DNA of 64,000 nt from Candidatus Gastranaerophilales bacterium (GTDB lineage: Bacteria; Cyanobacteriota; Vampirovibrionia; Gastranaerophilales; Gastranaerophilaceae). Below the pieces are notes generated by a model that was not told where the DNA came from, did no database searches, and saw only the letters and a program-made list of their open reading frames with translations. The stretch is taken from the NCBI GenBank assembly GCA_944326565.1, contig CALVEL010000008.1, forward strand, positions 2,003-66,002, given 5' to 3'. Below are positions 43,937-62,548 of the stretch, piece by piece. Positions within the stretch are counted from its first letter, which is position 1, and every line of letters begins with the position of its first letter. A program made the position numbers and the translations under genes.

Positions 43937-43969
43937 AAATGTTATAGTGGATAATAGACGTAAAAATAA

Positions 43970-44380: not shown

Positions 44381-44431
44381 ACACAACTCCTTTATAATCA
44401 TAACGAAATAAGGCTGAAAATTGTTCAAATA

Positions 44432-44629: not shown

Positions 44630-44760
44630 AAACACCTCAAATTATAATTTGTTACTTTTGTAGTATAGCACAAAACTTTGAACAATTTACTTGTTATTTG
44701 ATTTATTAAGTAATACGCTAAAAATGTTAAAAACAGGCATGTTTGTAGTAAGATTATACT

Positions 44761-45381
44761 ATGGTTAAACGAGATGTTTGTAATTCTGTTTCTAAAGAAT
44801 ATAGTGCTAGGATGACTGGAAATCAATTTCTTTATCCAGAGTTTAAGGTTGCAGTTAAATTACTACAAGAAGGCTTAAGCAAAAAAGAAGCAACCGATAA
44901 AATTATTAATGAGAATTTATTTGAATATCGTTCTTTTAAGGCTATAAACAAACATATTGGTGCTGTATGGGAAAGAGCAAACTATTTAGATGACTATTTG
45001 ATTGAAGTGCTATTAACTGAACCTAATGAAATAGGAAGACTTATTAATTTTTATGCAATTTTAAAATATGACAGATTATTTCTTGAATTTATGGAAGAAG
45101 TCTTAATAGATAAAGTGTTTTCAAGACAAATGGAAGTTTCTAAATCTGATATATCCAACTATTTTTCGATTAAAGCAGAACAGAGTGAAACTGTGGCTAA
45201 CTTTAAAGAAACAACATTAAAAAGGCTTAGATTAGCGTATTTTGAGATTCTAAGTGGAGCTGGATATATAGGAACAAATAGAGATAATGCAGAATTAACA
45301 ATCCCTCTTGGTATATACCAGATTACTAATCATTTAGAAGAAATTGGTGATAAAAGGTATGCAAAAGCAATGTTAGGATAA
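44761..45381 (+). CDS. brxA: BREX protein BrxA (DUF1819)
   Basis: YSARMTGNQFLYPEFKVAVKLLQEGLSKKEATDKIINENLFEYRS fits the recalled DUF1819 pattern. It is the first gene of the six-gene BREX order. Confidence 0.85.
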   Translation: MVKRDVCNSVSKEYSARMTGNQFLYPEFKVAVKLLQEGLSKKEATDKIINENLFEYRSFKAINKHIGAVWERANYLDDYLIEVLLTEPNEIGRLINFYAILKYDRLFLEFMEEVLIDKVFSRQMEVSKSDISNYFSIKAEQSETVANFKETTLKRLRLAYFEILSGAGYIGTNRDNAELTIPLGIYQITNHLEEIGDKRYAKAMLG

Positions 45382-45384
45382 GTA

Positions 45385-45984
45385 ATGGAACTTAGAGCAA
45401 GACTGGATAAAATTAAAGCAATAATTGAACAGGATTCTTTTTTCAATCAACAATCGTTGGGTGGAGAGTTAAATTTTCATATCTTTGATTATGAACCTTC
45501 AGATGAACTAATTGTAAGAAGATATATCAAGGATTTTGTAAGCAGTTATTCTTATGCCAATTCAAAGATTAAACCTATAGAATTTGATTTATTTGAGATG
45601 TTATTAAAAATCCTAACTGATAAAACTGCTGGTAGTAAAACTTATCTTGATTTAGCAATAGAAACTGAAGAAAGACAAGGAACAGAAAGTCTTATTAATA
45701 CTCTTAGAGGGGTTATTAATATAGAAGAATTTGTAAATATGATAAAAAAAGAGCTAGGAGATAGTAATCTTGTTATTTTATCTGGTGTAGGAAAGGTGTA
45801 TCCTTTGGTAAGGTCGCATAATGTCTTAAATAATCTTCATGCAGTTTTAGATAAGATTCCAGTTATTATGTTCTATCCTGGTACATACGACCAAAAAGAA
45901 TTAAGGCTATTTAAAGGTTCAAACTTTGATGGCTTAAAAGATGATAATTATTACAGAGCATTTAGGCTTGTTGCAAATGAGTAA
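45385..45984 (+). CDS. brxB: BREX protein BrxB (DUF1788)
   Basis: 199 aa with FHIFDYEPSDELIVRRYI, as recalled for DUF1788. Lies between brxA and brxC with a 3-nt gap. Confidence 0.85.
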   Translation: MELRARLDKIKAIIEQDSFFNQQSLGGELNFHIFDYEPSDELIVRRYIKDFVSSYSYANSKIKPIEFDLFEMLLKILTDKTAGSKTYLDLAIETEERQGTESLINTLRGVINIEEFVNMIKKELGDSNLVILSGVGKVYPLVRSHNVLNNLHAVLDKIPVIMFYPGTYDQKELRLFKGSNFDGLKDDNYYRAFRLVANE

Positions 45985-45994
45985 AGGTGTAGTT

Positions 45995-48900
45995 ATGAAG
46001 CTAAGAGAATTATTTGAGAAAGATATTAATAGGAACATTAATGGTGTTGTTAAAGTTGAGCAAGTTGATGACGAAGCTATTATTTATCAAGAATTGGACG
46101 AATTTGTCGTTACAAAAGAACTTTCTAAGCATTTTAGCACTTTTTATAGTAATTATAAAAACTCATTTGAAGAAAGAACTGATAAAATCGGAGTATGGAT
46201 TTCTGGTTTCTTTGGTTCTGGTAAATCTCATTTTTTAAAGATGCTATCATATCTACTTGCCAACAAAGAAGTAAAAGGTAAAAAAACAATAGAATTCTTT
46301 GAAGGGAAATCTAATATAGATGATTGGACTTTTGCTGATATGAAATTAGCTACATCTGTTCCTACAGAAACTATTTTGTTCAACATTGATTCTAAAAGTT
46401 CAAAAGATACAAAACAAAGAAAAGATGGCATTGTTGAAGTCTTTTTAAAGGTCTTTAACGAATCTCAGGGTTACTCTGCAAACTACCCTAAACTTGCAGA
46501 TATTGAAAGATATCTTGATAAAAATGGAAAATACGAAGAATTTAAACAAATTATAACCTCAGAAAGTGGTGTATCTTGGGAAGAAGCATCTAATGCAGTT
46601 GGTTTCTTTAAAGACTTCTTTATAAAGGCTTATGTTCAAGTTACAGGGACAACAGAACAAAGTACACAAGACTTATTTAAAGATGTTGTTGAAGATTCAG
46701 GGATTACACCAGAAGGGTTTGCAAAGCTAATAAAAGAATATCTTGAAAGTAAAGGTAGTAAGAATCGAATTATTTTCTTGGTCGATGAAATTGGGCAATT
46801 TATAAGCGATAATACAAACCTTATGCTTAGTTTACAGACAGTTGTTGAAAACTTGGGTACTACGTGTAATGGAAGAGCTTGGGTAATGGTAACATCTCAA
46901 GAAGCAATAGATTCTATAACAAAAGAACGTTTCAGGGACCAAGATTTCTCAAAAATCCAAGGCAGATTTGATACAAAATTAAGTTTATCTGGTTCAAACA
47001 CTGATGAAGTTATCAAACGAAGATTATTAGAAAAGAAACCAGATGCAAGAACTCTTCTTTCTAATTATTACAACGAACAAGAAAAGATTTTGGCAAATCT
47101 AATCACCTTTTCCAGTCAAACTTCCGGCATGAAAATGTATGAAAATTCGGGCGATTTTGTTGATTGTTATCCATTTGTCCCATATCAATTCAAGTTGTTA
47201 CAAAGTGTGTTTACAGAGTTAAGAAACTTTTCTCATGCCGGGGCTCACTTAGCTTCAGGGGAGCGTTCTATGCTTAATGCATTCCACACAGCGTTAAAAG
47301 AGTATGGGGACAAAGAGATTACAGAATTAGTTCCATTCAATGTTTTTTATTCTACGATTCAAACCTTTATAGATACAGATATTGTCAGAATAATTGCACA
47401 AGCAAAAGAGGGTAATCCAGATATAGAAGATTTTGATATTGAAGTCTTAACTGTTTTATTCTTGATTAAATACATTAAAGAAGTTCCTTGTGATGTAGAA
47501 AATATTGCAACATTAATGATATCAAATATTAATGAAAGCAAAAATGCACTAAAATCCAAAATAGAAGGAGCTTTAACAAGATTAAAACAAGCTACATTAA
47601 TACAACAAAATGGAGAAGAATATTCATTCTTAACAAACGAAGAACAAGATGTTACAAGAGGTATAAAAAACACTCAGATTGATTCTAGCGATGTGTTAAA
47701 TGAAGTCTATAGAAATATATATGAAGAAATTTATACTAAAAAGTCAATAACTCCATATCCTCAAGGACAGTCTTATTATTTTGTAAGAAAAGTTGATGAT
47801 GTAGTAAGAGGAAGCCAAGCAGAAGATATAGAAGTTAAATTTATCACTTCTATGAACTCTGATTATAAATTCAGCGAATCTGAGCTAAAAATGAAGTTTC
47901 TTGCAGGAAATACATTATTTATCAAATTGAATGAAAACGGTTACCTACAAGAACTTGAAACTATCTTAAAAACAGATAAGTATATCAAGCAAAAAAGCAG
48001 TGTAAAACAGTCTGAAATGCAGGATATGATATTAAAAAACAGAGGTGCTGAATTAATAGAACGCAAGAAAAGGGTGAAAACTTTATTAGAACAAGCTATT
48101 CTTGAATCTACTTTCTACACAAACGGTCAGATTATGGAAGTTAGTGCAACAAGTGCTGCTGCAAAGATTGAAAATGCTTTGAAACAAATTGTAGAAAATA
48201 CATATACGAACCTTCATTTTATCCAAGAAAGAGTTAGGGATGAAAAAGAAATCCATGCAAAACTCATTGCTCCTCAAGGTAAATTGGATGAAAGAAACAA
48301 AAAAGCTCTTGATGATGTTTTAGCATTTATTCAACTAAATAACTCGATGAGTTGCACTGTTACAATGCAGGGATTAAAACAACAATATACAAGAAAACCT
48401 TTTGGTTGGTCTATAAATGATATTGCAGGTGTTGTAGCAGATTTAGCTGTTAAAGGAGACATTTCTATTCTCTATAATGGTGTTCAATGCAATTATCAGG
48501 ATTATAATACAGTAAAATATTTGACAAATGACAGAGAAATTCAAAGCACTGTAATCAAATTGAAAGAAAAAATAGATAGTGCAAAAATCCAGCAAGTAAT
48601 AGCAATAGCACAAGAACTATTTGAAAAACAAGACTTTGTAGATGATGGAGAAAAACTTGCAAATTCAATAAGAGAAAATCTTCAAAATATGATTGGAGAT
48701 TTACAAGAGCTTAATGGAAGACATAATAACCCCAAATATCCTAAAAAGACTGTTATTGAACTTGGTCTTTCTACATTAAAAGAGCTTAAGAATGAGCCAG
48801 ATGTAAACGGATTATTTGATTTATTGATAAAGCAAAAGGATAATTTATTAACTTGGAAACAAGAATATAAACTCCTAAAATCATTCTTTAATACTCAAGT

Positions 48901-49561
48901 TGGTATTTTTGATGAATCATTGAAAATATATGACAGAGTAAAAAGAAATGAAGTTTATTTAACAACTTTTGAATCAGAAGAGGTTGCTAAATTAAATGAA
49001 CTAATTTCTAAACTTGAATCGATAATAGATTCTCCTGAACCATATTCTATGATTAAAGCTCTTCCTGTCTTAAATTCGGATATAACTTCTATTGTTAATA
49101 ATGTATTAGAAGATTATAAACAGGCATTAGGAGAAGTTATAAGTGATTTAGCTCATTATTTAGCAGAAGAAGCATCCAAACAGGGGCTTGAATGTGAAAG
49201 ATATAGCAACTTATTCAAGATTAATGTTACTGATTTGTATGAAAGAGCAACTGATTTTGGAGTGTTAAAGGCTATTGAAGAAAAAGCAAAATTATATTAT
49301 GAAAAACTTTTGAAACAAATTTCAGAAGATAGCATTGCGAAAAAGAATTTAGAATTACAACAACTAACAGGTACAGAAGAACATCCAGACTCTGAACCAA
49401 TGATTCAGAAAGAATTAGTATTCGTAAATCCTACAAATGTTGTTCAGAGTATGCAAATTCTTGAAACGGAAGAAGATGTTGATAACTATATCAACAAACT
49501 ATCAGAAGAGTTGAAAAACAGAATCAGGAACAATAAACGTATTAAACTCCAAGGGGGCTAG
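45995..49561 (+). CDS. brxC: BREX P-loop ATPase BrxC
   Basis: N-terminus MKLRELFEKDINRNINGVVKVEQVDD...ELDEFVVTKEL and P-loop GFFGSGKSHFLKML. About 1190 aa. ATG at 45995 has an AAAGGTG RBS. Confidence 0.9.
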   Translation: MKLRELFEKDINRNINGVVKVEQVDDEAIIYQELDEFVVTKELSKHFSTFYSNYKNSFEERTDKIGVWISGFFGSGKSHFLKMLSYLLANKEVKGKKTIEFFEGKSNIDDWTFADMKLATSVPTETILFNIDSKSSKDTKQRKDGIVEVFLKVFNESQGYSANYPKLADIERYLDKNGKYEEFKQIITSESGVSWEEASNAVGFFKDFFIKAYVQVTGTTEQSTQDLFKDVVEDSGITPEGFAKLIKEYLESKGSKNRIIFLVDEIGQFISDNTNLMLSLQTVVENLGTTCNGRAWVMVTSQEAIDSITKERFRDQDFSKIQGRFDTKLSLSGSNTDEVIKRRLLEKKPDARTLLSNYYNEQEKILANLITFSSQTSGMKMYENSGDFVDCYPFVPYQFKLLQSVFTELRNFSHAGAHLASGERSMLNAFHTALKEYGDKEITELVPFNVFYSTIQTFIDTDIVRIIAQAKEGNPDIEDFDIEVLTVLFLIKYIKEVPCDVENIATLMISNINESKNALKSKIEGALTRLKQATLIQQNGEEYSFLTNEEQDVTRGIKNTQIDSSDVLNEVYRNIYEEIYTKKSITPYPQGQSYYFVRKVDDVVRGSQAEDIEVKFITSMNSDYKFSESELKMKFLAGNTLFIKLNENGYLQELETILKTDKYIKQKSSVKQSEMQDMILKNRGAELIERKKRVKTLLEQAILESTFYTNGQIMEVSATSAAAKIENALKQIVENTYTNLHFIQERVRDEKEIHAKLIAPQGKLDERNKKALDDVLAFIQLNNSMSCTVTMQGLKQQYTRKPFGWSINDIAGVVADLAVKGDISILYNGVQCNYQDYNTVKYLTNDREIQSTVIKLKEKIDSAKIQQVIAIAQELFEKQDFVDDGEKLANSIRENLQNMIGDLQELNGRHNNPKYPKKTVIELGLSTLKELKNEPDVNGLFDLLIKQKDNLLTWKQEYKLLKSFFNTQVGIFDESLKIYDRVKRNEVYLTTFESEEVAKLNELISKLESIIDSPEPYSMIKALPVLNSDITSIVNNVLEDYKQALGEVISDLAHYLAEEASKQGLECERYSNLFKINVTDLYERATDFGVLKAIEEKAKLYYEKLLKQISEDSIAKKNLELQQLTGTEEHPDSEPMIQKELVFVNPTNVVQSMQILETEEDVDNYINKLSEELKNRIRNNKRIKLQGG

Positions 49562-49649
49562 GGGTAAATGGTGTAAATAGGAGTAACCATTATAGAATAA
49601 ACTTAATCCCTAAAATATTGGAACTTTTCAAACTATAAAGGAAGTATTG

Positions 49650-52600
49650 ATGACAGAACTATTAGAAAAAGAAATAACATTGGATAAATCAGCACTAAAA
49701 GACTTTGCAATAAAAGCAAGAAGAAAACTTAAAGAAAGAGTTGAGCTTCAAGCAAAACTGATGGGATTTTATGAAGATAATAGAGCTGTCAATTATGAGT
49801 TTGAAGACGACAGACAAGTGAAAATAAATGGAGAGTTCTTTAGCAAAAAACAAGTTGAGACCTTACAAAGAGAAATTAAGTCAAAAGGTTATGAAAACTT
49901 GATTGATGAAGTTGCATATACTTGGTTCAACAGATTCATCGCTCTATATTATATGGAAGTCAATGGATATAGCGAAAATAATTTTAATATTATTTCAAAT
50001 ATCGATAACCTTAACCAATTTGCAGTATCTGTTTCATCACAATTGAATGATGAAGAAAAACAAACTGTTATATCAGCTGTTCAAAATAATAATCAGGATG
50101 TAATTTTTAAGACATTGCTAATTCATCAATGTAATGTGATGAACAAAAAACTTCCATTCTTGTTTGAGCAAATCCAAGACTATACAGAATTATTATTCCC
50201 TCAAGGGATGAATAGTGCTGATTCTGTAATAAAAGAAATGCTATCTCTTGATAAATCCAACTGGCAAGTTGTAGAAATTATCGGCTGGCTTTATCAGTAT
50301 TATATTTCAGAAGCAAAAGAAATACTTGATTATGAATTAAAAAATAAAAAAAATCGTAAAGTGCAAAAAGATGATATGCCAGCTAAAACTCAAATATTTA
50401 CTCCTAAATGGATAGTAAAATATATGGTTGAAAACTCAGTTGGTAAAATGTGGCTTGAAGCTCGTCCTAATAAAGAATTACAGTCTAAATTTAAGTACTA
50501 TTTGGAATCAGCTGATCAAGAAGATGATGTTAAAGAAAAACTAAAAGAAATTATAAATAAAAACATCTCTCCAGAGGATATAAAAGTTCTTGACCCTGCT
50601 TGTGGTTCTGGGCATATTTTGGTAACAGCTTTTGAAGTTTTATACCAAATATACAAATCTGCTGGATATATGAAAGATGAGATTGCTAAATTGATTCTGA
50701 CAAAAAATTTATATGGACTTGATATTTGTAATAGAGCTTCTCAATTAGCTCAACTTGCTTTAATTATGAAAGCTAGAGAATATGACAAAGATATTTCATC
50801 TAAGGTAGTTGAATTAAATATAACTTCTATTCAAGATACCAATTGGTTTGATTCAAGAGTAAAAGAATGCCTAATGAATGGTGTAACTAACCAATTACTT
50901 GCACAATCACAAATAGATTTATTGCAAAAAACATTCAAAGACGCTAAAGAATACGGTTCAATTCTTGATGTAAAAGATTTTGATTTCAATTTTTGGGAAG
51001 AAAGATTATATGCTGTGCAAACTCTAAATATGGGACTTTTATATTCTGATATTACAGAACAATTAAGAGACAAATTACCTCAATTAATCAAACAAGCTCG
51101 TATCATGCAACAAAAATATGAATGCGTTATTACAAATCCTCCGTATTTAGGTAGTAAATTCTTTGATGCAAAATTAACAGAATTCATGACAAAAAAATAT
51201 CCTAATTCAAAATCGGATACGTGTGTAGCATTTATAGAAAAGGCTTTGCAAATGACAGCTAAAAATTCATATTGTGCTCTAGTTGTTATGCAATCATGGA
51301 TGTTTTTATCATCATTTGAAAAGTTTAGAGAACACTTATTAAATAATTCGACAATTCAAACAATGACACATATGGGTAATAACGTCATGAAAATAGCTTT
51401 TGGCACATGTGCAACAGTATGGCAAAAAGCTGTAATGCCAAAATATAAAGCTGTATATTCATGGGTAGAAAACGATGATATTACTGAAAAAGATATTCCA
51501 TATACATTCCCTATTAAAGATAATGGGCGATATAACATAGTTGCTCAAAATGGATTCCACTCAATACCTGGGTCGCCGATTGCATACTGGGCTAGCGATA
51601 GAGTTAGAGAGATATTTAGAAATAACAAGCCTTTAAATGAATTTGTTGAAGCTTTTCAAGGAATTATAACAGGTGATAATAATTATTTTTTAAGATTATG
51701 GTATGAACTTGAAAATAATAAGATTTCATTTAATAAACAAAAAATGGAAGAAGTTAATATATCTGAACAATATTGGATTCCTTATAACAAAGGAGGCGAA
51801 TTTAGGAAATATTATGGTAATCAAGATTATGTCATAAATTGGAAAGATGAAGGTGATGGACTTGTTAGAAGCCGAAACAAATCTTCTGAATATTATTTGC
51901 AAGAATATGTTTCTTGGACATATATTACATCTACAACTCCCACAACAAGATATTATCCCAAAGGTTTTTTATGGGATGTAGCTGGTTCTGGTTTCTTTGA
52001 TAAAAATAAAAATAACAAGAATTTGTATTATTTACAAAGCTTATTGGGTTCAAACGTAGGAAGATATATTATTTATTTAATTAATCCAACAATAAATTTT
52101 CAAGTCGAAAATATATTATTATTTCCAACGAAATTTCCGAATAAAGAAATTCAAGATAAAATTAATTCATTAGTTGCAGAAAACATTCAAATATCAAAAG
52201 ACGATTGGGATAGTTTTGAAACATCTTGGGATTTTGAACAACATCCTTTGTTGAGATTCTCTAATAGAAATAAAGGTCTTGTTGACTACAAAAATATTCA
52301 TAAAGTTGAACCTATTACAGCAGGAGATAAAGTTCAAGATTGTTTCAATAAATGGAAGGAATACAAACAAGAACAATTCAACAAACTAAAAGCTAATGAA
52401 GAAGAATTGAACAGATTGTTTATTGAAATTTATGGACTTCAAGATGAAATGACTCCAGAGGTCGATGATAAAGATATTACAGTCGCTTTAGCAGATGAAT
52501 TAAGGGATATAAAATCACTTCTATCTTATGCTATTGGCTGTATGTTTGGCAGATATTCTCTTGATGAAAAAGGTTTAATATTTGCTGGTGGAGAGTTTGA

Positions 52601-53207
52601 CAAAAGTAAATATCAAACCTTAGAAGTTGATGAAGATGGTATTTTACCAATTCTTTCTGATACTTGGTTTGATGATGATATTATAGAAGAGTTCAAAAGG
52701 TTCTTGAAAAAAGCATTTGGCGAATTATATTTCAATGAGAATATGCAATATATAGCAGATGTTTTAGGTCGCAAAGGTTCTGAGAGTGCAGAAGATAGAA
52801 TTAGAACATATTTCTTGAAAGATTTCTACAAAGACCATTTGCAAATCTACAAAAAACGTCCTATTTATTGGATGTTTACAAGCGGCAAAGAAAAAGGGTT
52901 CAACGCTCTAATATATCTGCACAGGTATGACAAAACAACATTATCAAGAATAAGAAAAGATTATTTGCACGAGTTCCAAAACAAATTGGATAATGCAATA
53001 CAAAGAGCAGAAAACGAAGGAAATGTTAAATTAACATCACTATATTCAAAATATCAAACAGAATGCCTTGAATTTGATAGAAAGATTAAGGATTTAGCTG
53101 ATGAGCAGATAGAGCTAGACCTTGATGACGGTGTAAAAGTTAATTATGCAAAATTCAAAGGACTGCTCGAATCAGAAAAAGATGTAATAGGAAAGGATAA
53201 AGGCTAA
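49650..53207 (+). CDS. pglX: BREX N6-adenine DNA methyltransferase PglX
   Basis: SAM-binding motif I VLDPACGSGHIL and catalytic motif IV VITNPPYLGSK. About 1185 aa, in the correct position after brxC. Confidence 0.9.
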   Translation: MTELLEKEITLDKSALKDFAIKARRKLKERVELQAKLMGFYEDNRAVNYEFEDDRQVKINGEFFSKKQVETLQREIKSKGYENLIDEVAYTWFNRFIALYYMEVNGYSENNFNIISNIDNLNQFAVSVSSQLNDEEKQTVISAVQNNNQDVIFKTLLIHQCNVMNKKLPFLFEQIQDYTELLFPQGMNSADSVIKEMLSLDKSNWQVVEIIGWLYQYYISEAKEILDYELKNKKNRKVQKDDMPAKTQIFTPKWIVKYMVENSVGKMWLEARPNKELQSKFKYYLESADQEDDVKEKLKEIINKNISPEDIKVLDPACGSGHILVTAFEVLYQIYKSAGYMKDEIAKLILTKNLYGLDICNRASQLAQLALIMKAREYDKDISSKVVELNITSIQDTNWFDSRVKECLMNGVTNQLLAQSQIDLLQKTFKDAKEYGSILDVKDFDFNFWEERLYAVQTLNMGLLYSDITEQLRDKLPQLIKQARIMQQKYECVITNPPYLGSKFFDAKLTEFMTKKYPNSKSDTCVAFIEKALQMTAKNSYCALVVMQSWMFLSSFEKFREHLLNNSTIQTMTHMGNNVMKIAFGTCATVWQKAVMPKYKAVYSWVENDDITEKDIPYTFPIKDNGRYNIVAQNGFHSIPGSPIAYWASDRVREIFRNNKPLNEFVEAFQGIITGDNNYFLRLWYELENNKISFNKQKMEEVNISEQYWIPYNKGGEFRKYYGNQDYVINWKDEGDGLVRSRNKSSEYYLQEYVSWTYITSTTPTTRYYPKGFLWDVAGSGFFDKNKNNKNLYYLQSLLGSNVGRYIIYLINPTINFQVENILLFPTKFPNKEIQDKINSLVAENIQISKDDWDSFETSWDFEQHPLLRFSNRNKGLVDYKNIHKVEPITAGDKVQDCFNKWKEYKQEQFNKLKANEEELNRLFIEIYGLQDEMTPEVDDKDITVALADELRDIKSLLSYAIGCMFGRYSLDEKGLIFAGGEFDKSKYQTLEVDEDGILPILSDTWFDDDIIEEFKRFLKKAFGELYFNENMQYIADVLGRKGSESAEDRIRTYFLKDFYKDHLQIYKKRPIYWMFTSGKEKGFNALIYLHRYDKTTLSRIRKDYLHEFQNKLDNAIQRAENEGNVKLTSLYSKYQTECLEFDRKIKDLADEQIELDLDDGVKVNYAKFKGLLESEKDVIGKDKG

Positions 53208-53213
53208 AGATTT

Positions 53214-53714
53214 ATGCCAAATTCAGAACGAGAAACTATAGAAAATTTAATAAGAGTGCTAAATTGTAATGAAACCGTTACGGTCTTTAAGAGAAAACGT
53301 TCATTTATATTTAATTTTGCTATGATTTGGAATCTTTTTGAAGATAGATGTATGGATAATTTTGCCCAAATTTCTAAGGTTGATGATTTTGTTAATACTT
53401 TGCCTTCCGATTTAAATCTGGATGTAAATATAATTTTTGATTATTTCAAAGATAGGTATAAAGTAGTTAATAATATATACAATATAGAAAACTTATTATG
53501 GAGACGTAATGAAAATACTTACAGAAATTTTGTAATAGAAAAATTCAGAGATACTCAATGCTCTCATCAAGATAAAATAAAAGCTGTTTTATATATTATT
53601 TTTAGACTAAGAAATAATCTTTTTCATGGGGAAAAAGATATTGCAATAATAAATGAACAAAAACGAACTTTTGTTCTTGTGAACAAATTTTTGATGGATT
53701 TAATTACTTTATAG
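53214..53714 (+). CDS. HEPN-type (Rx4H) small protein inserted between pglX and pglZ
   Basis: 166 aa, starting 6 nt after the pglX stop and ending 11 nt before pglZ. C-terminal helix LYIIFRLRNNLFHGEKD contains R133-x4-H138 in the RNxxxHG context typical of HEPN RNase/Abi families. Confidence 0.6.
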   Translation: MPNSERETIENLIRVLNCNETVTVFKRKRSFIFNFAMIWNLFEDRCMDNFAQISKVDDFVNTLPSDLNLDVNIIFDYFKDRYKVVNNIYNIENLLWRRNENTYRNFVIEKFRDTQCSHQDKIKAVLYIIFRLRNNLFHGEKDIAIINEQKRTFVLVNKFLMDLITL

Positions 53715-53725
53715 GTAAATAGATA

Positions 53726-56236
53726 ATGGAACAAGATAAATTACAAGAATTAATATTGAAACATTTTAACAAGCAAGAAAGACAAATTGTATTCTGGTAT
53801 GATGAAACTGGAGAAAATGAAGAAAAACTGGATTCATTATCTCTTCCTAATATTAAAATACACAAGCTCACAAAGAATAATAATCTTTTGACAAAAAAGT
53901 TGCTTGAAAAAGATGATACGACATCAAATTATCTTATTTATGCACCTTTTGAGATGCCTCCTATTGAAGATAACTGGTTTATTGATACACAACTATATTC
54001 ACAAGTTCTATCTGTTGATGAGGTGGATAGTTTATGCTCCGAATTTGAAGTCTATGATATAGCAATTAAAAACCTGTTCAAAAACCATATCAAATTCTTT
54101 AATAACAAAAAAAGAATAAATAATTTCAAAACTCTGTTGCCATCTAATAAATCAGTAGAAAATTTCTACTTAGCAATGTTTGGAACGCTTGTCGAGTGTA
54201 AAATATTTGATAAATACAAAATTATTCAAACATTTATTATAAAAGAAATTATTGATAAAAATACTCCATCAAAGGAATTTGCAAAGTATGGATTGGAAGA
54301 TAAGTTTTGGGAATTAATAGAAAAAGAATTTGGCTACTTGGGAGAACGAGAAGCAAAATATCTATTAGCAGGAATTGTCTTTAAAAAACTGCAACAACAA
54401 CTCAGAGGTTCAAGTTTCCCTGATACTTATAAAAAATATATTAGTAAGAATATGAAAGAAGCTGAATGCAATTCATTCTTAGAAAGTTGGTTTCGTGATA
54501 CAGAGCTTATGCCTTATTATAAAGAATTGATAGAAGAGTTTGAAAGAGATGATTTTAAAATAGATGAGAATATTACAGACTGGTCTGATATATTACAAAG
54601 CGAACCTGAATTCCAAACTCTTAGAGCATATGATAGATTCCTTGTTAATTATTTGATTGCTCAATTTGATTCGTTAAAAGATGAAGATAAAATACTTATT
54701 GAAAAAAGAAAAAGAACACTATTCTATAATGAGTATGAAAATGTTTATAATGCTCTTTTCTGGGCTTTGGAATTAAGTTTGTTAGTGAAAAACACTCAGA
54801 TTCCAGAACAGAAAATTGAAACATTTATTAAGAGCTATGCTCAAAGTTATTACAAAATAGATAAAGCATATAGAAAATTCTATTACTATTGTGGATTATT
54901 AAACGATAGAAAACTTGACTCTGTTAAAGATAAAGTTGAGAAATTGTATGTAAACAAATATCTTGATGATATTAATTTGAAATTCTCTAACCAAGTAAAA
55001 GAAATTGCCCCTAACTGGACTTTTTCAAATCTTCCTATGCAAAAAGATTTCTATTACAATGAAGTACGTTCTTCTAAAAACAAACTTGTTGTTATAATTT
55101 CTGATGCATTACGATATGAAATTGCAGAAGAATTAAGCGAGGCAATTAGAAGTAACTACTCAATTAAAGCCGATGTAAAACTGGATTGTATGGTCGCTTC
55201 AATCCCTTCTTATACAAGATTAGGGATGGCTTCATTGCTTCCTCATAAAGAAGTTTCTATGAATAATAAAGCTGAAATTGTTGTAGATGGAGTAGTTGCA
55301 AAGGATTCTGCATCAAGAGAAAAAATATTGCAAGCACATAATCCAAACTCAAAAGTTCTGATTTTAAGTGATTTAGAAGATATGTCAAGAGATGATTTAA
55401 GAGCTCTATTTAGTGGATTAGAGATTGCTTATATTTATCATGATGACATTGATAAAGCTGGAGAACATAATGAAAAAGATGTGTTTAATGCTGCTGAAAA
55501 AACTGTAAAAATACTTTCAGAAAAAATTAAGTTTTTGTTCAATAATTCTTTGTGTAGCAATGTAATTATTACCGCAGACCACGGTTTCTTATATCAATAT
55601 AGCGATTTAGAAGAGCATCAAAAGATTACAATAGGCACTATTGATTCTATTGAGTGTAAAAAAAGGTATATTATTGGAACTTCTCCAGTAGAAAAGCAGG
55701 GTATCGTTGATTTTGATATGAATTATATATTCAAAAATTCAGCTTTAAAATTGTCGTTGCCATGCAATATCAATAGATTTAAAACTTCTGGAGCTGGCAT
55801 AAATTACGTTCATGGAGGAGCTAGTCCTCAAGAAATAGTATTACCTCTTTTGAGAGTTAAGCAAAACCGTAAACAAGAAATTAAGAAAGTAAAACTTTCA
55901 CTAGAAAACTCTTCTCGAAAGATTACTAATAATAAGTTTACATTATCATTCTTGCAAAAAGAAAGCATATCTGAGCTTGTTAAACCAAGAGTATTCAGCG
56001 TTTCTTTATGGGATGAAGAAAATAATATGCAAGTATCTAATAAACTTATTATAGATGCAAATATTAGTTCTGATAAAATGGAAGATAGAATATTCAAAAA
56101 AGTATTAGAACTAAAAAGTTTTGATGCAGATAAAAACAAAGATTATTACTTGATTATAAAAGATGTAGATGAGGTTGGTGAACCATATGCAAAAATCCCA
56201 TTTACAATAAATTTAATGTTCCAGTCAGATTTTTAA
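53726..56236 (+). CDS. pglZ: BREX alkaline-phosphatase-superfamily protein PglZ
   Basis: VVIISDALRYEIAEEL and VIITADHGFLY motifs of the PglZ domain. 836 aa. Confidence 0.9.
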   Translation: MEQDKLQELILKHFNKQERQIVFWYDETGENEEKLDSLSLPNIKIHKLTKNNNLLTKKLLEKDDTTSNYLIYAPFEMPPIEDNWFIDTQLYSQVLSVDEVDSLCSEFEVYDIAIKNLFKNHIKFFNNKKRINNFKTLLPSNKSVENFYLAMFGTLVECKIFDKYKIIQTFIIKEIIDKNTPSKEFAKYGLEDKFWELIEKEFGYLGEREAKYLLAGIVFKKLQQQLRGSSFPDTYKKYISKNMKEAECNSFLESWFRDTELMPYYKELIEEFERDDFKIDENITDWSDILQSEPEFQTLRAYDRFLVNYLIAQFDSLKDEDKILIEKRKRTLFYNEYENVYNALFWALELSLLVKNTQIPEQKIETFIKSYAQSYYKIDKAYRKFYYYCGLLNDRKLDSVKDKVEKLYVNKYLDDINLKFSNQVKEIAPNWTFSNLPMQKDFYYNEVRSSKNKLVVIISDALRYEIAEELSEAIRSNYSIKADVKLDCMVASIPSYTRLGMASLLPHKEVSMNNKAEIVVDGVVAKDSASREKILQAHNPNSKVLILSDLEDMSRDDLRALFSGLEIAYIYHDDIDKAGEHNEKDVFNAAEKTVKILSEKIKFLFNNSLCSNVIITADHGFLYQYSDLEEHQKITIGTIDSIECKKRYIIGTSPVEKQGIVDFDMNYIFKNSALKLSLPCNINRFKTSGAGINYVHGGASPQEIVLPLLRVKQNRKQEIKKVKLSLENSSRKITNNKFTLSFLQKESISELVKPRVFSVSLWDEENNMQVSNKLIIDANISSDKMEDRIFKKVLELKSFDADKNKDYYLIIKDVDEVGEPYAKIPFTINLMFQSDF

Positions 56237-56248
56237 GGCAGGTGAAAA

Positions 56249-58297
56249 ATGAACAATTTAGATAAGAAAATTACAGAAACATTTGAAGGTTGTGTTGTAA
56301 GGAAAGACTTAGTAAAAGAAGTTAAAGGGAATGCTATTGTTCCTTCATACGTCTTAGAATATTTACTTGGACAATATTGTGCATCAAGTGATGAAGATGT
56401 AATTAAATCAGGAATTGAATCAGTAAAAGAAATTCTAGCAAAACACTATGTTAATAGAAACGAAGCAGAATATATTAAATCTACTATTAAAGAAAAAGGA
56501 CGCTACAAAGTAATTGATAAGGTAAGTGTTCAATTTAATGAAAAAACAGATTCTTATATTGCTACATTTTCAAATCTAGGAATAACAGGGATTAATGTCC
56601 CATCTGAAATAGCTTATAAAAAGTATCCAAGATTATTGGTTTCAGGAATTTGGTGTCTAGCAGACCTTGAATATCAATATACTGAAGATAAAAAGGCTTG
56701 CCCTTGGTTGTTGCAGAACATCAAGCCTATTCAGCTTGCACAGTTTGATTTTGAAGATTTTAAAGCTAAAAGAGCAATGTTTTCTACTGATGAATGGATT
56801 GATTTACTTATGCAAAGCATAGGTTTTAATCCAGAAATGCTAAGCAGAAGAAAGAAATTATTACAGCTTGTTAGACTTATTCCATACTGTGAAAGAAATT
56901 ATAATTTTATAGAACTTGGACCTAAAGGAACTGGTAAGAGTCACATATACACAGAATTTTCACCTCATGGAACTTTGATTTCTGGGGGCGAAGTTTCTGC
57001 TGCAAAATTATTTGTGAATAATTCAAGAAAACATGATATTGGTTTAGTTGGGTACTGGGATAATATTGCATTTGATGAGTTTGCAGGTAGCTCAAAGAAA
57101 GTTGATAAAGCTCTTGTTGATATAATGAAAGGTTATATGGCTAACAAGTCATTCTCTAGAGGCGTTGAAACACTAACGGCAGAAGCATCAATGACATTTA
57201 TTGGTAATACAAAGCACAATGTTCCTTATATGTTAAAACATTCTAATTTGTTTGAAGAATTACCTCCTCAATATTTAGATTCAGCATTTCTTGATAGAAT
57301 TCATTTCTATTTACCGGGATGGGAAGTTGATGTTACAAGACCAGAATTATTTACTACAAACTACGGTTTTGTTGTGGATTATTATTCAGAAGCTTTAAAA
57401 TGTCTAAGAAATTATGATTTTTCTAATGAATACAAGAAAGAATTTACTCTAGGAAATATTTCAGAACGTGATAGAACAGGTGTTATGAAGACATTCTCAG
57501 GGCTTATGAAGATTATTTATCCTGATAAAAAAGCTTCAACTGAAGAATTAGAAGAATTACTTAAATTTGCAATGGAAGGAAGAAAAAGGGTTAAAGACCA
57601 GATTTTAAGAATAGACTCGACTCTTCCACAAGTAGATTTTTCATATACAAGTAATTCTGGAGTCGAAGTTAAAGTAAAAACAACTGAAGAAATTCAATAT
57701 AAAGGATTATATAATGGAGAAATGGAAGACTCCGAAGACGAAGTTATGATAAGTTCTCCAGAAGTTGTTGAAGTAATAAATGATAGTTCTAAAGAAACTG
57801 CAACTAATGAAGAAGAAATTAAAGAACATCATTTTGTAATTGAAGAAAATCAAATTGGGGTTACGTTTGAAAAGCTGTTTGGAAGATTATTTAAAGGGGT
57901 AAAAAATATTGTTATTACTGACCCTTATATAAGAAATTTCTACCAAACTGTAAACTTAATGGAATTATTAGAAGTTGTAGATAAAGCGAAATCTGAAACA
58001 GATATTGTTACTGTTGAATTAATAACTTCTGCTGATGAATTTAATGAACAAATACAGCGTGAAAACTTAAATACCATAAGAGAATCTTGCTTACAAATGG
58101 GTATTGAATTTAGTTATCAATTCGATTCAAGTATTCATGCAAGAAGTATTGTTACTGATACTGGATGGAAAGTTTTATTAGATAGAGGACTTGATATATT
58201 CCAAAATTGTGAAAGAAAAGATGCATTTCAATTCACAACAAGATTACAAAAGTACAGACCTTGTAAAAAATTTGAGATAACATATTTGAGAACATAA
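56249..58297 (+). CDS. brxL: BrxL-type ATPase with a non-canonical C-terminal MIT_C/PLD-like domain
   Basis: The N-terminus FEGCVVRKDLVKEVKGNAIVPSYVLEYLLGQYCASSDEDVIKSG and P-loop LGPKGTGKSHIY match recalled BrxL. After an acidic linker, residues ~531-682 resemble the MITD1 C-terminal domain. I see no Lon S16-type GPSAG region. Confidence 0.8.
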   Translation: MNNLDKKITETFEGCVVRKDLVKEVKGNAIVPSYVLEYLLGQYCASSDEDVIKSGIESVKEILAKHYVNRNEAEYIKSTIKEKGRYKVIDKVSVQFNEKTDSYIATFSNLGITGINVPSEIAYKKYPRLLVSGIWCLADLEYQYTEDKKACPWLLQNIKPIQLAQFDFEDFKAKRAMFSTDEWIDLLMQSIGFNPEMLSRRKKLLQLVRLIPYCERNYNFIELGPKGTGKSHIYTEFSPHGTLISGGEVSAAKLFVNNSRKHDIGLVGYWDNIAFDEFAGSSKKVDKALVDIMKGYMANKSFSRGVETLTAEASMTFIGNTKHNVPYMLKHSNLFEELPPQYLDSAFLDRIHFYLPGWEVDVTRPELFTTNYGFVVDYYSEALKCLRNYDFSNEYKKEFTLGNISERDRTGVMKTFSGLMKIIYPDKKASTEELEELLKFAMEGRKRVKDQILRIDSTLPQVDFSYTSNSGVEVKVKTTEEIQYKGLYNGEMEDSEDEVMISSPEVVEVINDSSKETATNEEEIKEHHFVIEENQIGVTFEKLFGRLFKGVKNIVITDPYIRNFYQTVNLMELLEVVDKAKSETDIVTVELITSADEFNEQIQRENLNTIRESCLQMGIEFSYQFDSSIHARSIVTDTGWKVLLDRGLDIFQNCERKDAFQFTTRLQKYRPCKKFEITYLRT

Positions 58298-58303
58298 ATA
58301 TTT

Positions 58304-58984
58304 ATGGATACAAAAGAAGCATCAAAAAAATTTCAGAATGGGAATTGGCAAGATAACGCTATTTTGTCTAATGGATATTATAGTTGGGATATGATGGCGG
58401 ACGGTTATTTTAATGCTGCTAATATCTTAGTGGGAAGTACAATTTGCCCTGAGTTTATCAATGAGAAATATTTGTGTTGTAAAAATAAAGAAATTGGAGA
58501 ACCTTTATTTTCAACATGTAAAAACACCTTTATTTTTCCCATATTTTTCTTATATAGACATTATATTGAATTATCAATAAAAAAAGCTTACATAAGAATC
58601 AAGAAATGTAAGCTTGAAAATTCTAAAATTAAAGCTGAACATTCTCTAAGAATTTTGTTTAAAAATTTAAAAGACAATTATATGAATATGTATAATAGCA
58701 ATACGTATCAAATGTATAAAAATTTAGAATTTAAACAATTACGACGTAAGTTTCAGGAAATAGAACAGATTATACTTGAGTTCGATGCTATAGATAGTAC
58801 ATCTTTTAATTTTAGATATCCTATAGATAATAATGGTTGTCTTATCTTTAACAACAATGAAATAATTAATATAGAGAATCTAGCCGAAAAGATGCAGAAA
58901 ATTAGAGTTTTCTTTCAATACCTAGATATTGCTTTAGATGAAATTGAAGAAGTAAAAAATATTATACTAGATTATATTGAATAA
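58304..58984 (+). CDS. HEPN-like helical protein coupled to the end of the BREX operon
   Basis: Starts 6 nt after the brxL stop. FFLYRHYIELSIKKAYI...AEHSLRILFKNL...SFNFRYPID follows the classical HEPN layout (xxxxE..lK ... H.L..L ... RYP) as I recall it. There is no His 4-6 residues after the Arg. Confidence 0.45.
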   Translation: MDTKEASKKFQNGNWQDNAILSNGYYSWDMMADGYFNAANILVGSTICPEFINEKYLCCKNKEIGEPLFSTCKNTFIFPIFFLYRHYIELSIKKAYIRIKKCKLENSKIKAEHSLRILFKNLKDNYMNMYNSNTYQMYKNLEFKQLRRKFQEIEQIILEFDAIDSTSFNFRYPIDNNGCLIFNNNEIINIENLAEKMQKIRVFFQYLDIALDEIEEVKNIILDYIE

Positions 58985-59083
58985 ACAGATAAATTATTTA
59001 AATATAGTTAATAATATATTATATCTAAACTTGATGTTATCTAACTTTTGAGTGATGAATACGACACCTTAAAAGGAGGTCGT

Positions 59084-59308
59084 ATGAGTAACAGCAAGAA
59101 ATACAAGATTAAACAAAAAGATTTTAGGAAGTTAGAAAAATTAGCTGAGCGGATTTATAATATTGTCACTGTAATTGATTATTTTTGCAGGACACAACAA
59201 GAAATTGAAGAGCTGTATAATCTTACCCCAATTGTTGAATATTTAAGGAGAGATACTGATACGGTCAACGCATATTTTATAAATTATCCTGACAGTAAGA
59301 ATTTTTAA
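59084..59308 (+). CDS. small hypothetical protein (74 aa)
   Basis: ATG at 59084 has a strong RBS AAGGAGG. No motif recognised. Its last codons overlap the right inverted-repeat arm. Confidence 0.5.
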   Translation: MSNSKKYKIKQKDFRKLEKLAERIYNIVTVIDYFCRTQQEIEELYNLTPIVEYLRRDTDTVNAYFINYPDSKNF

Positions 59309-59357
59309 ATGGTATTTAATTCCTGTTTAAATACCGTTCAAAAAGTGTTCAAAAATT
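59301..59357. repeat. right arm of the imperfect inverted repeat bracketing the recombinase-BREX segment
   Basis: In reverse complement it reads AATTTTTGAACACTTTTTGAACGGTATTTAAACAGGAATTAAATACCATTTAAAAAT. Box order and phasing are the same as in the left arm, while the spacers between the TTAAA boxes have diverged. Confidence 0.8.
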
Positions 59358-59455
59358 GATTGTGTCTGAATGATACGTTTTGAAAGAGTTTGCTTGATAT
59401 TTTACTCATTAAGAGTAATGAATGTCATTGCTATAAATGAATATAAGGGGTAGCA

Positions 59456-59671
59456 ATGATTGAATTAGGCAAAAAATACAAACTTAAAAAGATTAAAGGC
59501 TTTGAAAACTCTGATAATGAGTATTACAAAGTAATTGGATTCTACACCTTCGACACCGTAATTTGCGAAAACGCTTGCAGAGAAAGATTTGTATTTATGA
59601 AAGAGTTTTTAATAGACCCACAAAAGCCTGATGATATCTATTCAGATTTAATACTTGAAAGGAATAAATAA
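59456..59671 (+). CDS. small hypothetical protein (71 aa)
   Basis: RBS AAGGGG. Its stop overlaps the next start (TAATG). Confidence 0.45.
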   Translation: MIELGKKYKLKKIKGFENSDNEYYKVIGFYTFDTVICENACRERFVFMKEFLIDPQKPDDIYSDLILERNK

Positions 59672-59880
59672 TGACAGAAAAAGATTATCACTTATACGGA
59701 ACAAAGGTTTTAAACTTAAAGACTCAAGAAATCGGCTTACTGATTTGTATTTGGAAAAATAAGTTTGCCGATGCTGAGGTAGATTACGCTACTTGCGTAG
59801 ATAAACAAGGCAAAAGGTACAATATAGAGCTTGATAGTATAAGAGGGTTTGAAGATGATTTTTTCAAAGCCAATAGTTGA
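59671..59880 (+). CDS. small hypothetical protein (69 aa)
   Basis: Translationally coupled to the previous ORF. No motif recognised. Confidence 0.45.
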   Translation: MTEKDYHLYGTKVLNLKTQEIGLLICIWKNKFADAEVDYATCVDKQGKRYNIELDSIRGFEDDFFKANS

Positions 59881-59965
59881 ACATATGGTAAAACTTGTGA
59901 GCCTGTAACTGAAATGGAACATAGCGAAATAAGTGTGAAAAATAAACTGGTTTAAAGACTACTAT

Positions 59966-62548
59966 TTAGTATAGTATATTATCTATTGTTTTTATTAAAA
60001 TTTCTTTCTCGTTGCTACCATTGGTTTTAAATCTTAACAAAGGAATTCCATATTTTTTAAGAATTTCATTTTTTAAAATGTCTCTTTGGGCTTGTTTGGT
60101 TCCTTCAGAATGGTATTTATAGCCATCTACTTCTATTGCTAAAAATGGAGAATTATCAATATTTTTATAAATAAGAAAGTCAATATGAGTTAAGTCATTA
60201 AGTACATACTGTAGTTCTCTGTTAGTAGTTAATAAAGACTTATCTTTTAAAATAGTTTTTAACATTACATGTGGAGTTACACTAAATTGATTTGGATAAT
60301 ACTTATTAATAATTTTATTGATAAAAATATACATTAAGTTTTCACTATCGTATTGCGATATTTTTTTATGTTTTTTTAAAATTTCTTGTTTTCTCTGTTC
60401 ATAACATTTATAAAGATAATCAAATACTGAATATAATTTACTGTCATAAATTTCTAAATTATTATATTTGATGTAATTTACAAGATCATTTATATTTTTA
60501 TCCTTACTCATTTCATTAGGATTAATGACTAGGATTAATTGTTCAATAGCTCTTGATATTGCAACATTAAGACGATTAGGATTATCTGTAAAATCACTTA
60601 TTTCATTATCTACGGTAGAAATAATTATAACCTTATTTTCTTGCCCTTGAAACTTATCTACAGTATCAGCCTTAACGGTAGTGTTTTTAAAAGTTTTCTG
60701 TAATGCCTCAGTTTGATTCCGATATGGTGTTACAATACCCAAGGAATTATCATCAAGGCATATATTATATTTAGGAATAATTTCATTTACAATCATGTCT
60801 ATTTGTCTTTGGTTATAATGATTACGAGCATGATTACCTTCAGTTGTATAACACAAAACTAAAGGCATTCTGCTACTTTTTATATCACTTAAAATAATTA
60901 ATTCATTGTTATAAAATTTCTTATTACAAAATTCAATAATTTTAGGATGACAACGATAATGCTCTTTTAATAGTGTTTTAGGTGCATTTTTAAATAATTC
61001 TGTAATAGAGGATAACAAACAGTGATTTTTATATCGATATGCTTCATTTAATTGATATTGTTTAAAAATGTTCTCTGTTATTTCTGCCGTTTTATTATTA
61101 ACGACATTAGGTAGTTGTTTTAAATCCCCTACAATAATAGCTTTTCTTGCACAAGCTAATGCTAATGCGCCAGTACATAAGTCAACTTGAGATGCCTCAT
61201 CAATAATAATGTAATCATATATAACATCGTTTGATAGACAATTTTTTAAAGAGTAGGTTGTACTTAATATTACAGGATAATCATCTATAAATGAATCAGA
61301 TTTTTGCTTTAAATCTTCTAATTTATACTTCTCTCTAATAAGATTGCAGTATTTTTCATTTAAATAATGTTTAAACATTTTTGCCGAAAGTTCTGAATAA
61401 GCCTTCATTTTTGACGCAAAATCATAGTTTAATAAATTATCATTAAGTTTTTTAATCTCAGAATTTAATTCTTGTGTCTTTAATTCATAAAATTTTCGTT
61501 GAAATTGAGCTTTTAAAAAATCTAAAGTGTATTTCTTTTTCCTAATTAAGTTATGTAATGTTAGTCGTTTTCTATTCCAAAACTTTAAATATTCTAAAAT
61601 AATTAAAAGAATTTTTATTACAATATTATCGTGAGAAATCTCTTCATAATTTTCACATGCAAAAATCATATCTAACATTTCTAATGATGATTTAGCATTT
61701 CTTATACATCTAGGCTCTTGTTTTACTTCAAGAGTTTTATAATACTCTATAAAATGTTTTTGCTCTAATTCTGCATTGGAAAATTCTTGCTTTAATAAGG
61801 CTAATTTGTTTTGTATATCTAATTTTTCTTGTAATTCTTTATAATCATATTTTAATTTATTGTTTAATTCAGTAATTTGTTCCGCGTTTATTTTCCAGTT
61901 TGAAATATTAGGTATTTCCGATTGCGATTTAATAAATTCTTGTTTATTTTCCAGATTTCCTAAAAATGCAGCAATAAAATCAACATCATATTTTTTTAGT
62001 TTATCTAGTACATTTTTAGTCGCAGAGTTATTACTTGAAACAACTGCAACACTTTGTCTTCGCATAACAATATTAGCAATAATATTCAAAATAGTTTGAG
62101 TTTTTCCAGTCCCTGGAGGGCCTTGGATTATGCTTAGTTCATTTGACAATGCTCTTTCAACAGCTAAAGCTTGACTATTATTGAATCCAAATGGATAAAT
62201 AATATTTTGTACATATTTGTCAACTTGATTTGTAAGCTTATTGCTTATATATTTGCCTAACATACTATTTATATCAATAAAATCTATTTTGTTATAGTTG
62301 GATAACAAAATATTCTCACCATTTTGAGTTAAACCAATAGCACTAGCAATGTCTTTTAAATATTCAAAACAGGATTTTGTTTTTTCATCTTTTAATGCAG
62401 ATTCTATTATTTTAACGTTGTAATCAGCATATGTATACTGTTTACCATTATTAAATATAACGTGATAACTTTTCCCAACTTTTTGGTATTTTATTACCTT
62501 ATTTGTACATTCTTCACCTTTTAAAAATATTCGAAAATTCTTTGTCAT
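59966..62548 (-). CDS. SF1 (Upf1/DNA2-like) helicase fused to a C-terminal Vsr/DUF559/DUF2726-type endonuclease domain
   Basis: Motif I IIQGPPGTGKTQT, motif II IIIDEASQV, and late motifs VDKFQGQENKVIIISTV. C-terminus IDFLIYKNIDNSPFLAIEVDGYKYH...RDILKNEILKKYGIPLLRF. Confidence 0.8.
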   Translation of the reverse strand: MTKNFRIFLKGEECTNKVIKYQKVGKSYHVIFNNGKQYTYADYNVKIIESALKDEKTKSCFEYLKDIASAIGLTQNGENILLSNYNKIDFIDINSMLGKYISNKLTNQVDKYVQNIIYPFGFNNSQALAVERALSNELSIIQGPPGTGKTQTILNIIANIVMRRQSVAVVSSNNSATKNVLDKLKKYDVDFIAAFLGNLENKQEFIKSQSEIPNISNWKINAEQITELNNKLKYDYKELQEKLDIQNKLALLKQEFSNAELEQKHFIEYYKTLEVKQEPRCIRNAKSSLEMLDMIFACENYEEISHDNIVIKILLIILEYLKFWNRKRLTLHNLIRKKKYTLDFLKAQFQRKFYELKTQELNSEIKKLNDNLLNYDFASKMKAYSELSAKMFKHYLNEKYCNLIREKYKLEDLKQKSDSFIDDYPVILSTTYSLKNCLSNDVIYDYIIIDEASQVDLCTGALALACARKAIIVGDLKQLPNVVNNKTAEITENIFKQYQLNEAYRYKNHCLLSSITELFKNAPKTLLKEHYRCHPKIIEFCNKKFYNNELIILSDIKSSRMPLVLCYTTEGNHARNHYNQRQIDMIVNEIIPKYNICLDDNSLGIVTPYRNQTEALQKTFKNTTVKADTVDKFQGQENKVIIISTVDNEISDFTDNPNRLNVAISRAIEQLILVINPNEMSKDKNINDLVNYIKYNNLEIYDSKLYSVFDYLYKCYEQRKQEILKKHKKISQYDSENLMYIFINKIINKYYPNQFSVTPHVMLKTILKDKSLLTTNRELQYVLNDLTHIDFLIYKNIDNSPFLAIEVDGYKYHSEGTKQAQRDILKNEILKKYGIPLLRFKTNGSNEKEILIKTIDNILY

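Follow-up and report, generated by a model that had tools for sequence, protein, structure and literature searches.

The BrxL protein encoded in a Type-1 bacteriophage exclusion (BREX) operon of Candidatus Gastranaerophilales ends in an MIT_C domain, the phospholipase D (PLD)-fold domain of human MITD1, and lacks the Lon-like domain that other BrxL proteins carry at this place. The gene (brxL, MIT_C type; 56249..58297, plus strand, 682 amino acids) lies in a 64,000-nucleotide stretch of DNA, here called the window, that corresponds to positions 2,003 to 66,002 of contig CALVEL010000008.1 (GenBank assembly GCA_944326565.1). Our preferred interpretation, to which we assign a probability of roughly 60%, is that this variant bears a predicted PLD-type nuclease on a DNA-loading ring and works as a motor-coupled effector of Type-1 BREX. 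The architecture itself is already known, HRD motif included, and the window protein is a further member with supporting detail. MIT_C was described on many BrxL proteins by Li et al. 2025 (PMC12065111), and a 2026 BREX survey found the Lon-like domain replaced by an 'HKD-endoDNase' in 1030 of the 2913 Type-1 BREX taxa with BrxL, noted the K-to-R change that gives the HRD motif and proposed an auxiliary restriction nuclease (PMC12839542). PADLOC-DB v2 (2023) already includes a BrxL model, PDLC02508, that matches the window protein end to end. The MIT_C type (also called the 'HKD' or 'HRD' type) is no local oddity but one of the two kinds of C terminus that are standard among BrxL proteins, and the ideas that it is an active nuclease and that MITD1 is an enzyme are both already in print (2025-2026). 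An initial sequence-only reading of the window had implied that the arrangement was new and restricted to this lineage; neither holds, given that it occurs in many phyla and that PDLC02508 and both papers came earlier.

An MIT_C domain in place of the Lon-like domain

Translation of the open reading frame (ORF) at 56249..58297 contains every protein string on which the sequence-only reading was based, and its division of the protein into an ordinary BrxL portion (residues 1 to about 480), an acidic linker and a MITD1-type PLD-like C terminus was borne out in full. The BrxL N-terminal domain occupies residues 10-142 (56276..56674, plus strand; Pfam BrxL_N, E = 8.4e-49, 165 bits) and the AAA+ ATPase domain residues 154-458 (56708..57622, plus strand; Pfam BrxL_ATPase, E = 1e-121, 406 bits). 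Both regions are ordinary, and the Walker A (GPKGTGKS, 56918-56941, plus strand, read from the translation) and Walker B (AFDE, 57068-57079, plus strand) motifs are intact, with E277 of the latter aligned with E280 of 8EMC, the Lon-type BrxL of Acinetobacter. Identity as BrxL is further established by TIGR02688 (449 positions; 586 bits against a cutoff of 329) and by PDLC02508, which spans residues 1-682 with 1046 bits.

The C-terminal domain covers residues 537-681 (57857..58291, plus strand) and was recognized by Pfam PF16565 ('Phospholipase D-like domain at C-terminus of MIT') over model positions 1-142 of 142 (E = 1.4e-40, 138.9 bits against a cutoff of 25); when residues 531-682 (57839..58297) were scanned alone, MIT_C was found at E = 6.8e-42. 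A phmmer search of PDB sequences matched human MITD1 directly (2YMB, 4A5Z; E = 2.7e-20), and the alignment confirmed the MITD1 strings IEEN, DPYIR, TS.DE, SSIH.R.I, GW, RGLD.F and RPC that the sequence-only reading had named. The Lon-like domain is absent, as had also been supposed. The alignment with 8EMC (E = 4.5e-136) extends over residues 3-478 and does not go beyond 8EMC residue 482, the Lon-type BrxL model TIGR02653 (675 positions) matches over positions 3-474 only and stays at 573 bits, under its cutoff of 628, and no Lon-family Pfam model matched the BrxL ORF at E ≤ 0.1. The window protein is therefore not a member of the Lon-type BrxL proteins, which have a Lon/RadA-like C-terminal domain of ∼180 amino acids, and the E-values exclude chance as the source of the MIT_C assignment. 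As to whether canonical BrxL proteins share this C terminus, a question that the sequence-only reading had raised against itself, the answer is divided: the MIT_C type is common and published, and it stands beside the Lon type.

The exchange of domains falls at a natural hinge. In Acinetobacter BrxL, the hinge comprises residues 469-497 and the Lon/RadA-like C-terminal domain residues 498-679 of 8EMC (PMC10164562). At the position of this hinge linker the window protein has an acidic linker of 58 amino acids (residues 479-536; 57683..57856, plus strand; 18 D/E against 3 K/R), and the linker together with the PLD-fold domain replaces the Lon-like domain. Among the 195 BrxL-MIT_C proteins measured, the segment between the ATPase and MIT_C was 48-84 amino acids long (median 60) and net acidic in every case. 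The acidity is kept although the linker sequence is poorly conserved, and it possibly serves autoinhibition or DNA mimicry.

The arrangement is widespread. A full-length search gave at least 8000 candidates, all with E ≤ 1e-10, and the best 120 matches, reaching down to 63% identity, all consisted of BrxL_N, BrxL_ATPase and MIT_C. When 1.84 billion cluster representatives were searched exhaustively, 1030 matched the domain at E ≤ 1e-3, and a single peptide pattern detected at least 595 matching stretches in species-representative genomes, from which 80 genome loci were kept for examination. These loci come from Pseudomonadota, Desulfobacterota, Cyanobacteria and Melainabacteria, Chlorobi, Planctomycetes, Spirochaetes and other phyla. 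In 79 of them the BrxL N-terminal/ATPase region directly precedes MIT_C, and PglZ is encoded upstream wherever the contig reaches that far. A word-indexed search with the 163-amino-acid domain returned matches of at most 285 amino acids only; the architecture counts come from the full-length, representative and genome-locus searches. The domain was also found on 25 plasmids in PLSDB, and no MIT_C match was obtained in 50,697 phage records.

The sole locus without a BrxL N terminus (L014) was rejected as a new architecture, the ORF being a 113-amino-acid remnant that directly adjoins a tyrosine integrase and a small ORF resembling xis. A 112-amino-acid 'stand-alone' MIT_C in locus L085 was likewise rejected as an independent architecture, with no other BREX gene within 10 kb. 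The MIT_C remnants in the two loci (L014, 10001..10462; L085, 10001..10339) are truncated, forming ORFs of 112-114 amino acids that start from the invariant Met571, and MIT_C fragments make up several independent clusters (P0008, P0010, P0011, P0015 and P0038). Public annotation describes MIT_C-type proteins as Lon protease-like though the Lon-like domain is absent: in 10 of the 12 PLSDB records listed (H1-H12; for example NZ_AP019778.1, 11202..11690) the gene is labelled 'BREX system Lon protease-like protein BrxL', and the JGI label for MIT_C-type copies is 'ATP-dependent Lon protease'.

A candidate active site and its predicted function

An AlphaFold2 model of residues 520-682, built from 55 homologues, had a mean pLDDT of 95 and a pTM of 0.90. 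Foldseek superimposed it on the MITD1 C-terminal domain (4A5Z, 2YMB) with TM 0.85-0.91, a root-mean-square deviation of 1.9 Å and 33% identity, which places the domain in the MIT_C fold (MITD1 residues about 90-245). The next matches, all at TMq 0.4-0.5 and E = 1e-5 to 1e-3, were PLD1/2, PLD3, a Streptomyces PLD, phosphatidylserine synthase and vaccinia F13, each with a probability of about 1.0, together with the PLD-like domain of TrmBL2, so that the domain also belongs to the PLD alpha/beta fold. Searching viral structures in BFVD matched viral PLD proteins and gave no close viral structure.

The domain contains the string HARSIVTD (58136..58159, plus strand), an HKD-like motif of the form HxR(x)4D with H630 as the putative nucleophile. 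The sequence-only reading had noted this spacing as reminiscent of the PLD motif, and the topology of the model fits: H630-A-R632 is followed by a four-residue beta strand (SIVT, 633-636), D637, a hairpin, a second strand and the DRGLD loop (58181..58195, plus strand), which takes the place of the GSxN part of the HKD motif. In the model the order of H-x-R, D and DRGLD is that of the HKD-motif topology, with K changed to R and GSxN to DRGLD. The canonical motif HxK(x)4D(x)6G(S/T)xN is not present; the sequence instead runs H630-A-R632-SIVT-D637-TGWKVLL-DRGLD. Further candidate pocket residues are contributed by a DPYIR motif (D558, Y560 and R562; 57920..57934, plus strand).

These positions are strongly conserved in a set of 161 distinct BrxL-MIT_C domains from many phyla. 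H630 and R632 are present in all 159 ungapped rows, D558, Y560, Q566, N569 and E575 in 161 of 161 domains and R562 in 160 of 161. Conservation is at least 98% for R562, T593, D645, R646, G647, L648 and R670. D637 is D in 149 domains (93%), N in seven, as in human MITD1, and E in two, while position 649 holds D in 144 rows and E in 15. A conserved polar set comprising D558, Y560, R562, Q566, N569, E575 and D645-R646-G647 thus accompanies the HxR(x)4D motif.

We infer from these features that MIT_C is an active phosphodiesterase, most likely a DNase, in which H630 would be the nucleophile and R632 would stand in for the HKD lysine. A BrxL chain offers a single HKD-like motif. Nucleases of the single-HKD kind complete their active site by dimerization, and because BrxL resembles them in having one motif per chain, an active site would probably require the pairing of two MIT_C domains. 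The C-terminal domains of Lon-type BrxL meet one-to-one at the equator and hold two rings tail-to-tail on DNA (PMC10164562). Pairing of MIT_C domains could take over this architectural role and could at the same time bring the nuclease sites close to the DNA that passes through the ATP-driven ring, with BrxL acting as a motor-coupled nuclease effector alongside PglZ. Domain identity, the PLD fold, the topology of the motif and its conservation in the 161 domains support the nuclease reading, as does the placement of MIT_C on BrxL, with PglZ upstream, in 79 of the 80 loci. The strongest outside support comes from DruE of the Druantia system, by analogy, and the published interpretation agrees (PMC12065111, PMC12839542).

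The company that MIT_C keeps outside BrxL supports the nuclease reading as well and bears on two lesser rivals. Outside BrxL, bacterial MIT_C domains occur in P0124, P0255, P0161, P0183, P0254, P0233 and P0257. P0124 joins the domain to three S1 RNA-binding domains and P0183 joins it to IF2_N; the other fusions are to DUF7669, DUF6884 and a GIY-YIG nuclease together, to DUF7669 alone and to DUF2196. The partners of known function, the S1 repeats and the GIY-YIG nuclease, are nucleic-acid modules and not membrane ones. This argues against the proposal that MIT_C is a lipid hydrolase, or that it binds membrane phospholipid and so positions the BrxL motor at the inner membrane, at the site of phage DNA entry. 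Hadders et al. 2012, a paper that PMC12065111 cites, calls the closest solved relative, the MITD1 domain, 'membrane-binding' in its title, but every fusion partner found in bacteria relates to nucleic acids, the linker has a strongly acidic composition and the operon has neither a membrane segment nor a lipid-related gene; we regard this explanation as very improbable. The fusions to S1 repeats and IF2_N are also in keeping with MIT_C being a phosphodiesterase for another substrate, such as RNA, a covalent protein-DNA or nucleotide adduct (as for Tdp1) or a nucleotide signal, and regulating BREX rather than executing its attack. The PLD superfamily does include Tdp1 and the 5' exonucleases PLD3 and PLD4 (Foldseek; PMC12065111), and the activity of DruE was assayed on single-stranded DNA (ssDNA). 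On the other hand, the pore of BrxL binds double-stranded DNA (PMC10164562), no signal-generating enzyme is evident in the BREX operon and nothing points to one specific alternative, and this substrate-shifted enzyme seems to us a rather poor prospect.

Several points weigh against the predicted nuclease activity of BrxL-MIT_C proteins. The motif is non-canonical, with R for K and with the DRGLD loop lying ∼3 residues farther along than GSxN. When the domain profile was searched against all PDB sequences at E ≤ 10, MITD1 was matched and no HKD enzyme was; the link to HKD enzymes is thus one of fold alone (TM about 0.45), and it is for this reason that H630 was equated with the HKD histidine from the fold, the topology of the motif and published work. 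In the sequence alignment, H-x-R, DPYIR and RGLD are retained by human MITD1 as well, so that conservation is no proof of catalysis, and the literature offers an enzymatic MITD1 only as a hypothesis (PMC12065111). Finally, Type-1 BREX has been described as restriction without cleavage (PMC12707154, PMC10164562), and in Acinetobacter restriction was abolished by ATPase mutations only.

The main rival takes MIT_C as a non-catalytic dimerization or scaffold module whose task is to join two BrxL rings tail-to-tail or to provide a docking place for other BREX proteins, with the polar residues serving an interface or phosphate binding. The retention of the motifs in MITD1 fits this proposal, as do three features of other BrxL proteins: ring-ring pairing is all that the Lon-type C-terminal domain has been shown to do, apart from a possible regulation of the ATPase (PMC10164562), this domain has no catalytic residues, so that BrxL needs no enzyme there, and Type-4 BrxL has no C-terminal domain at all (PMC12839542). 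However, H, R, D and about 20 other polar positions are near-invariant across phyla at ∼50% identity, which exceeds what is usual for interfaces, a long, flexible and acidic linker would be an odd means of making a rigid ring-ring contact, and DruE provides a precedent for catalysis in a MITD1-like domain. We therefore consider a purely structural module unlikely, and continue to favor a nuclease that pairs.

A more elaborate form of the nuclease proposal, which we advance tentatively, is that the activity is gated by assembly. Composite PLD sites would form only when the MIT_C domains of two BrxL subunits or rings pair after loading on unmodified DNA, in place of the tail-to-tail contact made by the Lon-like domain, and before that step the acidic linker could keep the sites inactive by mimicking DNA. 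If this were true, roughly a third of Type-1 BREX systems would cut DNA, contrary to 'restriction without cleavage'. The role of BrxL is counted among the open questions of BREX (PMC12707154), and the structural work has used the Lon-type Acinetobacter protein, whose C-terminal domain is not catalytic. Because a large minority of BrxL proteins carry the nuclease-looking domain, the mechanistic picture of those systems would change if it is active, and human MITD1 may in that case also have, or descend from, an enzymatic activity.

The BREX operon and its variable genes

All six Type-1 BREX core genes are present on the same strand in the window, and brxL is the last of them. It is preceded by brxA (44761..45381, plus strand; Pfam BrxA, E = 2.7e-43), brxB (45385..45984, plus strand; Pfam BrxB, E = 1.4e-37), brxC, encoding a pglY-type ATPase (45941..49561, plus strand; Pfam BREX_BrxC 4th, helical and wHTH domains), the methyltransferase gene pglX (49647..53207, plus strand; Pfam Eco57I, N6_Mtase and MmeI_Mtase) and pglZ (53726..56236, plus strand). 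The last encodes a PglZ of BREX-1 type A that belongs to a divergent sub-clade (Pfam PglZ; TIGR02687, 567 bits against a cutoff of 270). Between pglX and pglZ lies a variable accessory gene, ORF166 (53214..53714, plus strand; 166 amino acids), which had no Pfam match and whose sole match was phrog_27260 (function unknown; E = 2.4e-11). The slot that it occupies (53200..53723) differs between otherwise near-identical loci, and loci L001 and L004 have an ORF of 255 amino acids there.

The operon sits within a typical defence island. Upstream are an integrase fragment of 179 amino acids (43397-43936) and genes for HipA (41721-42827) and its helix-turn-helix partner (42820-43098), and downstream, on the minus strand, are an SF1 helicase-DUF2726 gene (59966-62548) and McrBC (62616-63863); in sister contigs the place of these downstream neighbors is taken by GmrSD and ParB-like genes. 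The G+C content of the window is 25-32%. Scanning 43000-60500 for promoters and terminators gave counts equal to those in shuffled controls. The exact BrxL protein of the window is present on 22 metagenome contigs, and its MIT_C domain is 100% identical in metagenome-assembled genomes of Candidatus Gastranaerophilales, so that the window derives from a gut melainabacterium, in line with its G+C content.

Six nucleotides past the brxL stop codon begins an orphan gene, ORF226 (58304..58984, plus strand), an uncertain member of the system. Its presence was confined to close Gastranaerophilales loci (L001-L009), where it follows brxL directly in every case, and it had five homologues among 5.8 billion proteins, in which the motifs LYRHxxELSxK, His113 and SxxxRYPID are invariant. 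Pfam, NCBIfam, PADLOC and PHROG models gave no match. The AlphaFold2 model is all-helical and mediocre (pLDDT 68), and a structure search with it found no neighbor below E = 0.4. The idea that ORF226 is a HEPN-like partner was left unsupported, HepT appearing only at E = 1.5 and without a family match.

Comparison of the window with related loci revealed sharp boundaries within the operon. Locus L009 is 93% identical in DNA from window position 56248, one nucleotide before the brxL start codon, through ORF226, and the 3' end of its pglX is 82% identical to that of the window. Between these flanks (L009 5906..8425 compared with window 53214..56247), its pglZ has no DNA similarity to that of the window and the two proteins are 27% identical. 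Both are NCBIfam type A PglZ proteins, and they fall in two deeply divergent sub-clades (567 versus 751-1049 bits). Unrelated pglZ DNA between similar flanks indicates that pglZ alleles have been exchanged as a cassette. A pairing of MIT_C-type BrxL with PglZ of type B was also considered and was rejected, since every PglZ tested was type A. A second variable segment lies in pglX, where ∼51347-52330 had no DNA match (blastn) to L001, L005 and L008, which are otherwise 94-97% identical; this segment is probably the target-recognition region.

Comparison with known systems

The published BrxL-MIT_C or 'HKD-endoDNase' proteins have the same succession of BrxL_N, AAA+ and MIT_C domains as the window protein, share its HRD motif and likewise occur in Type-1 BREX. 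Nothing essential differs; the window adds the lineage-specific ORF226 and a divergent type A allele of PglZ. With the Lon-type BrxL of Acinetobacter (8EMC/8EMH) it has in common the Walker A and B motifs and the gene position after pglZ, but it lacks the Lon/RadA-like domain and has the linker and PLD-fold domain at the hinge instead. The C-terminal domain of human MITD1 shares DPYIR, H-x-R, GW and RGLD with the BrxL domain. MITD1, however, has an N-terminal MIT domain that binds ESCRT-III, an N at the place of D637 and a role in cytokinesis, whereas the BrxL domain is mounted on a DNA motor in a defence operon.

Nuc, BfiI and SauUSI, which represent single-HKD nucleases and ATP-dependent PLD restriction enzymes (references 75-79 and 165 of PMC12839542), are PLD-fold enzymes with one HKD-like motif per domain and active sites built by dimers, and some are tied to ATPase or helicase motors for restriction. 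Their motif is the canonical HxK(x)4D(x)6GSxN, in contrast to BrxL-MIT_C with its R for K and DRGLD for GSxN, and their likeness to BrxL-MIT_C is one of fold (TM about 0.45), with no match at the level of sequence profiles.

An experimental precedent is provided by DruE of Druantia, in which two MITD1-like PLD domains make up an active nuclease; His1999-x-Arg2001 and Asp1917-Arg-Tyr1919 belong to the pocket that they share. DruE degrades ssDNA with ATP, its nuclease activity depends on the motor ATPase, and the substitution D1740A abolishes both cleavage and defence (bioRxiv 10.64898/2026.05.13.724313). Sequence similarity between DruE and BrxL was not detectable, and a PADLOC scan of the MIT_C domain matched BrxL only; the resemblance of the two DruE pocket motifs to H630-x-R632 and D558-P-Y560 of BrxL is one of motif only. 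DruE has two tandem PLD-like domains per chain on an SF2 helicase, while BrxL has one domain per chain on an MCM-like ring. Nevertheless, both are anti-phage proteins that place a MITD1-like PLD fold on an ATP-driven nucleic-acid motor.

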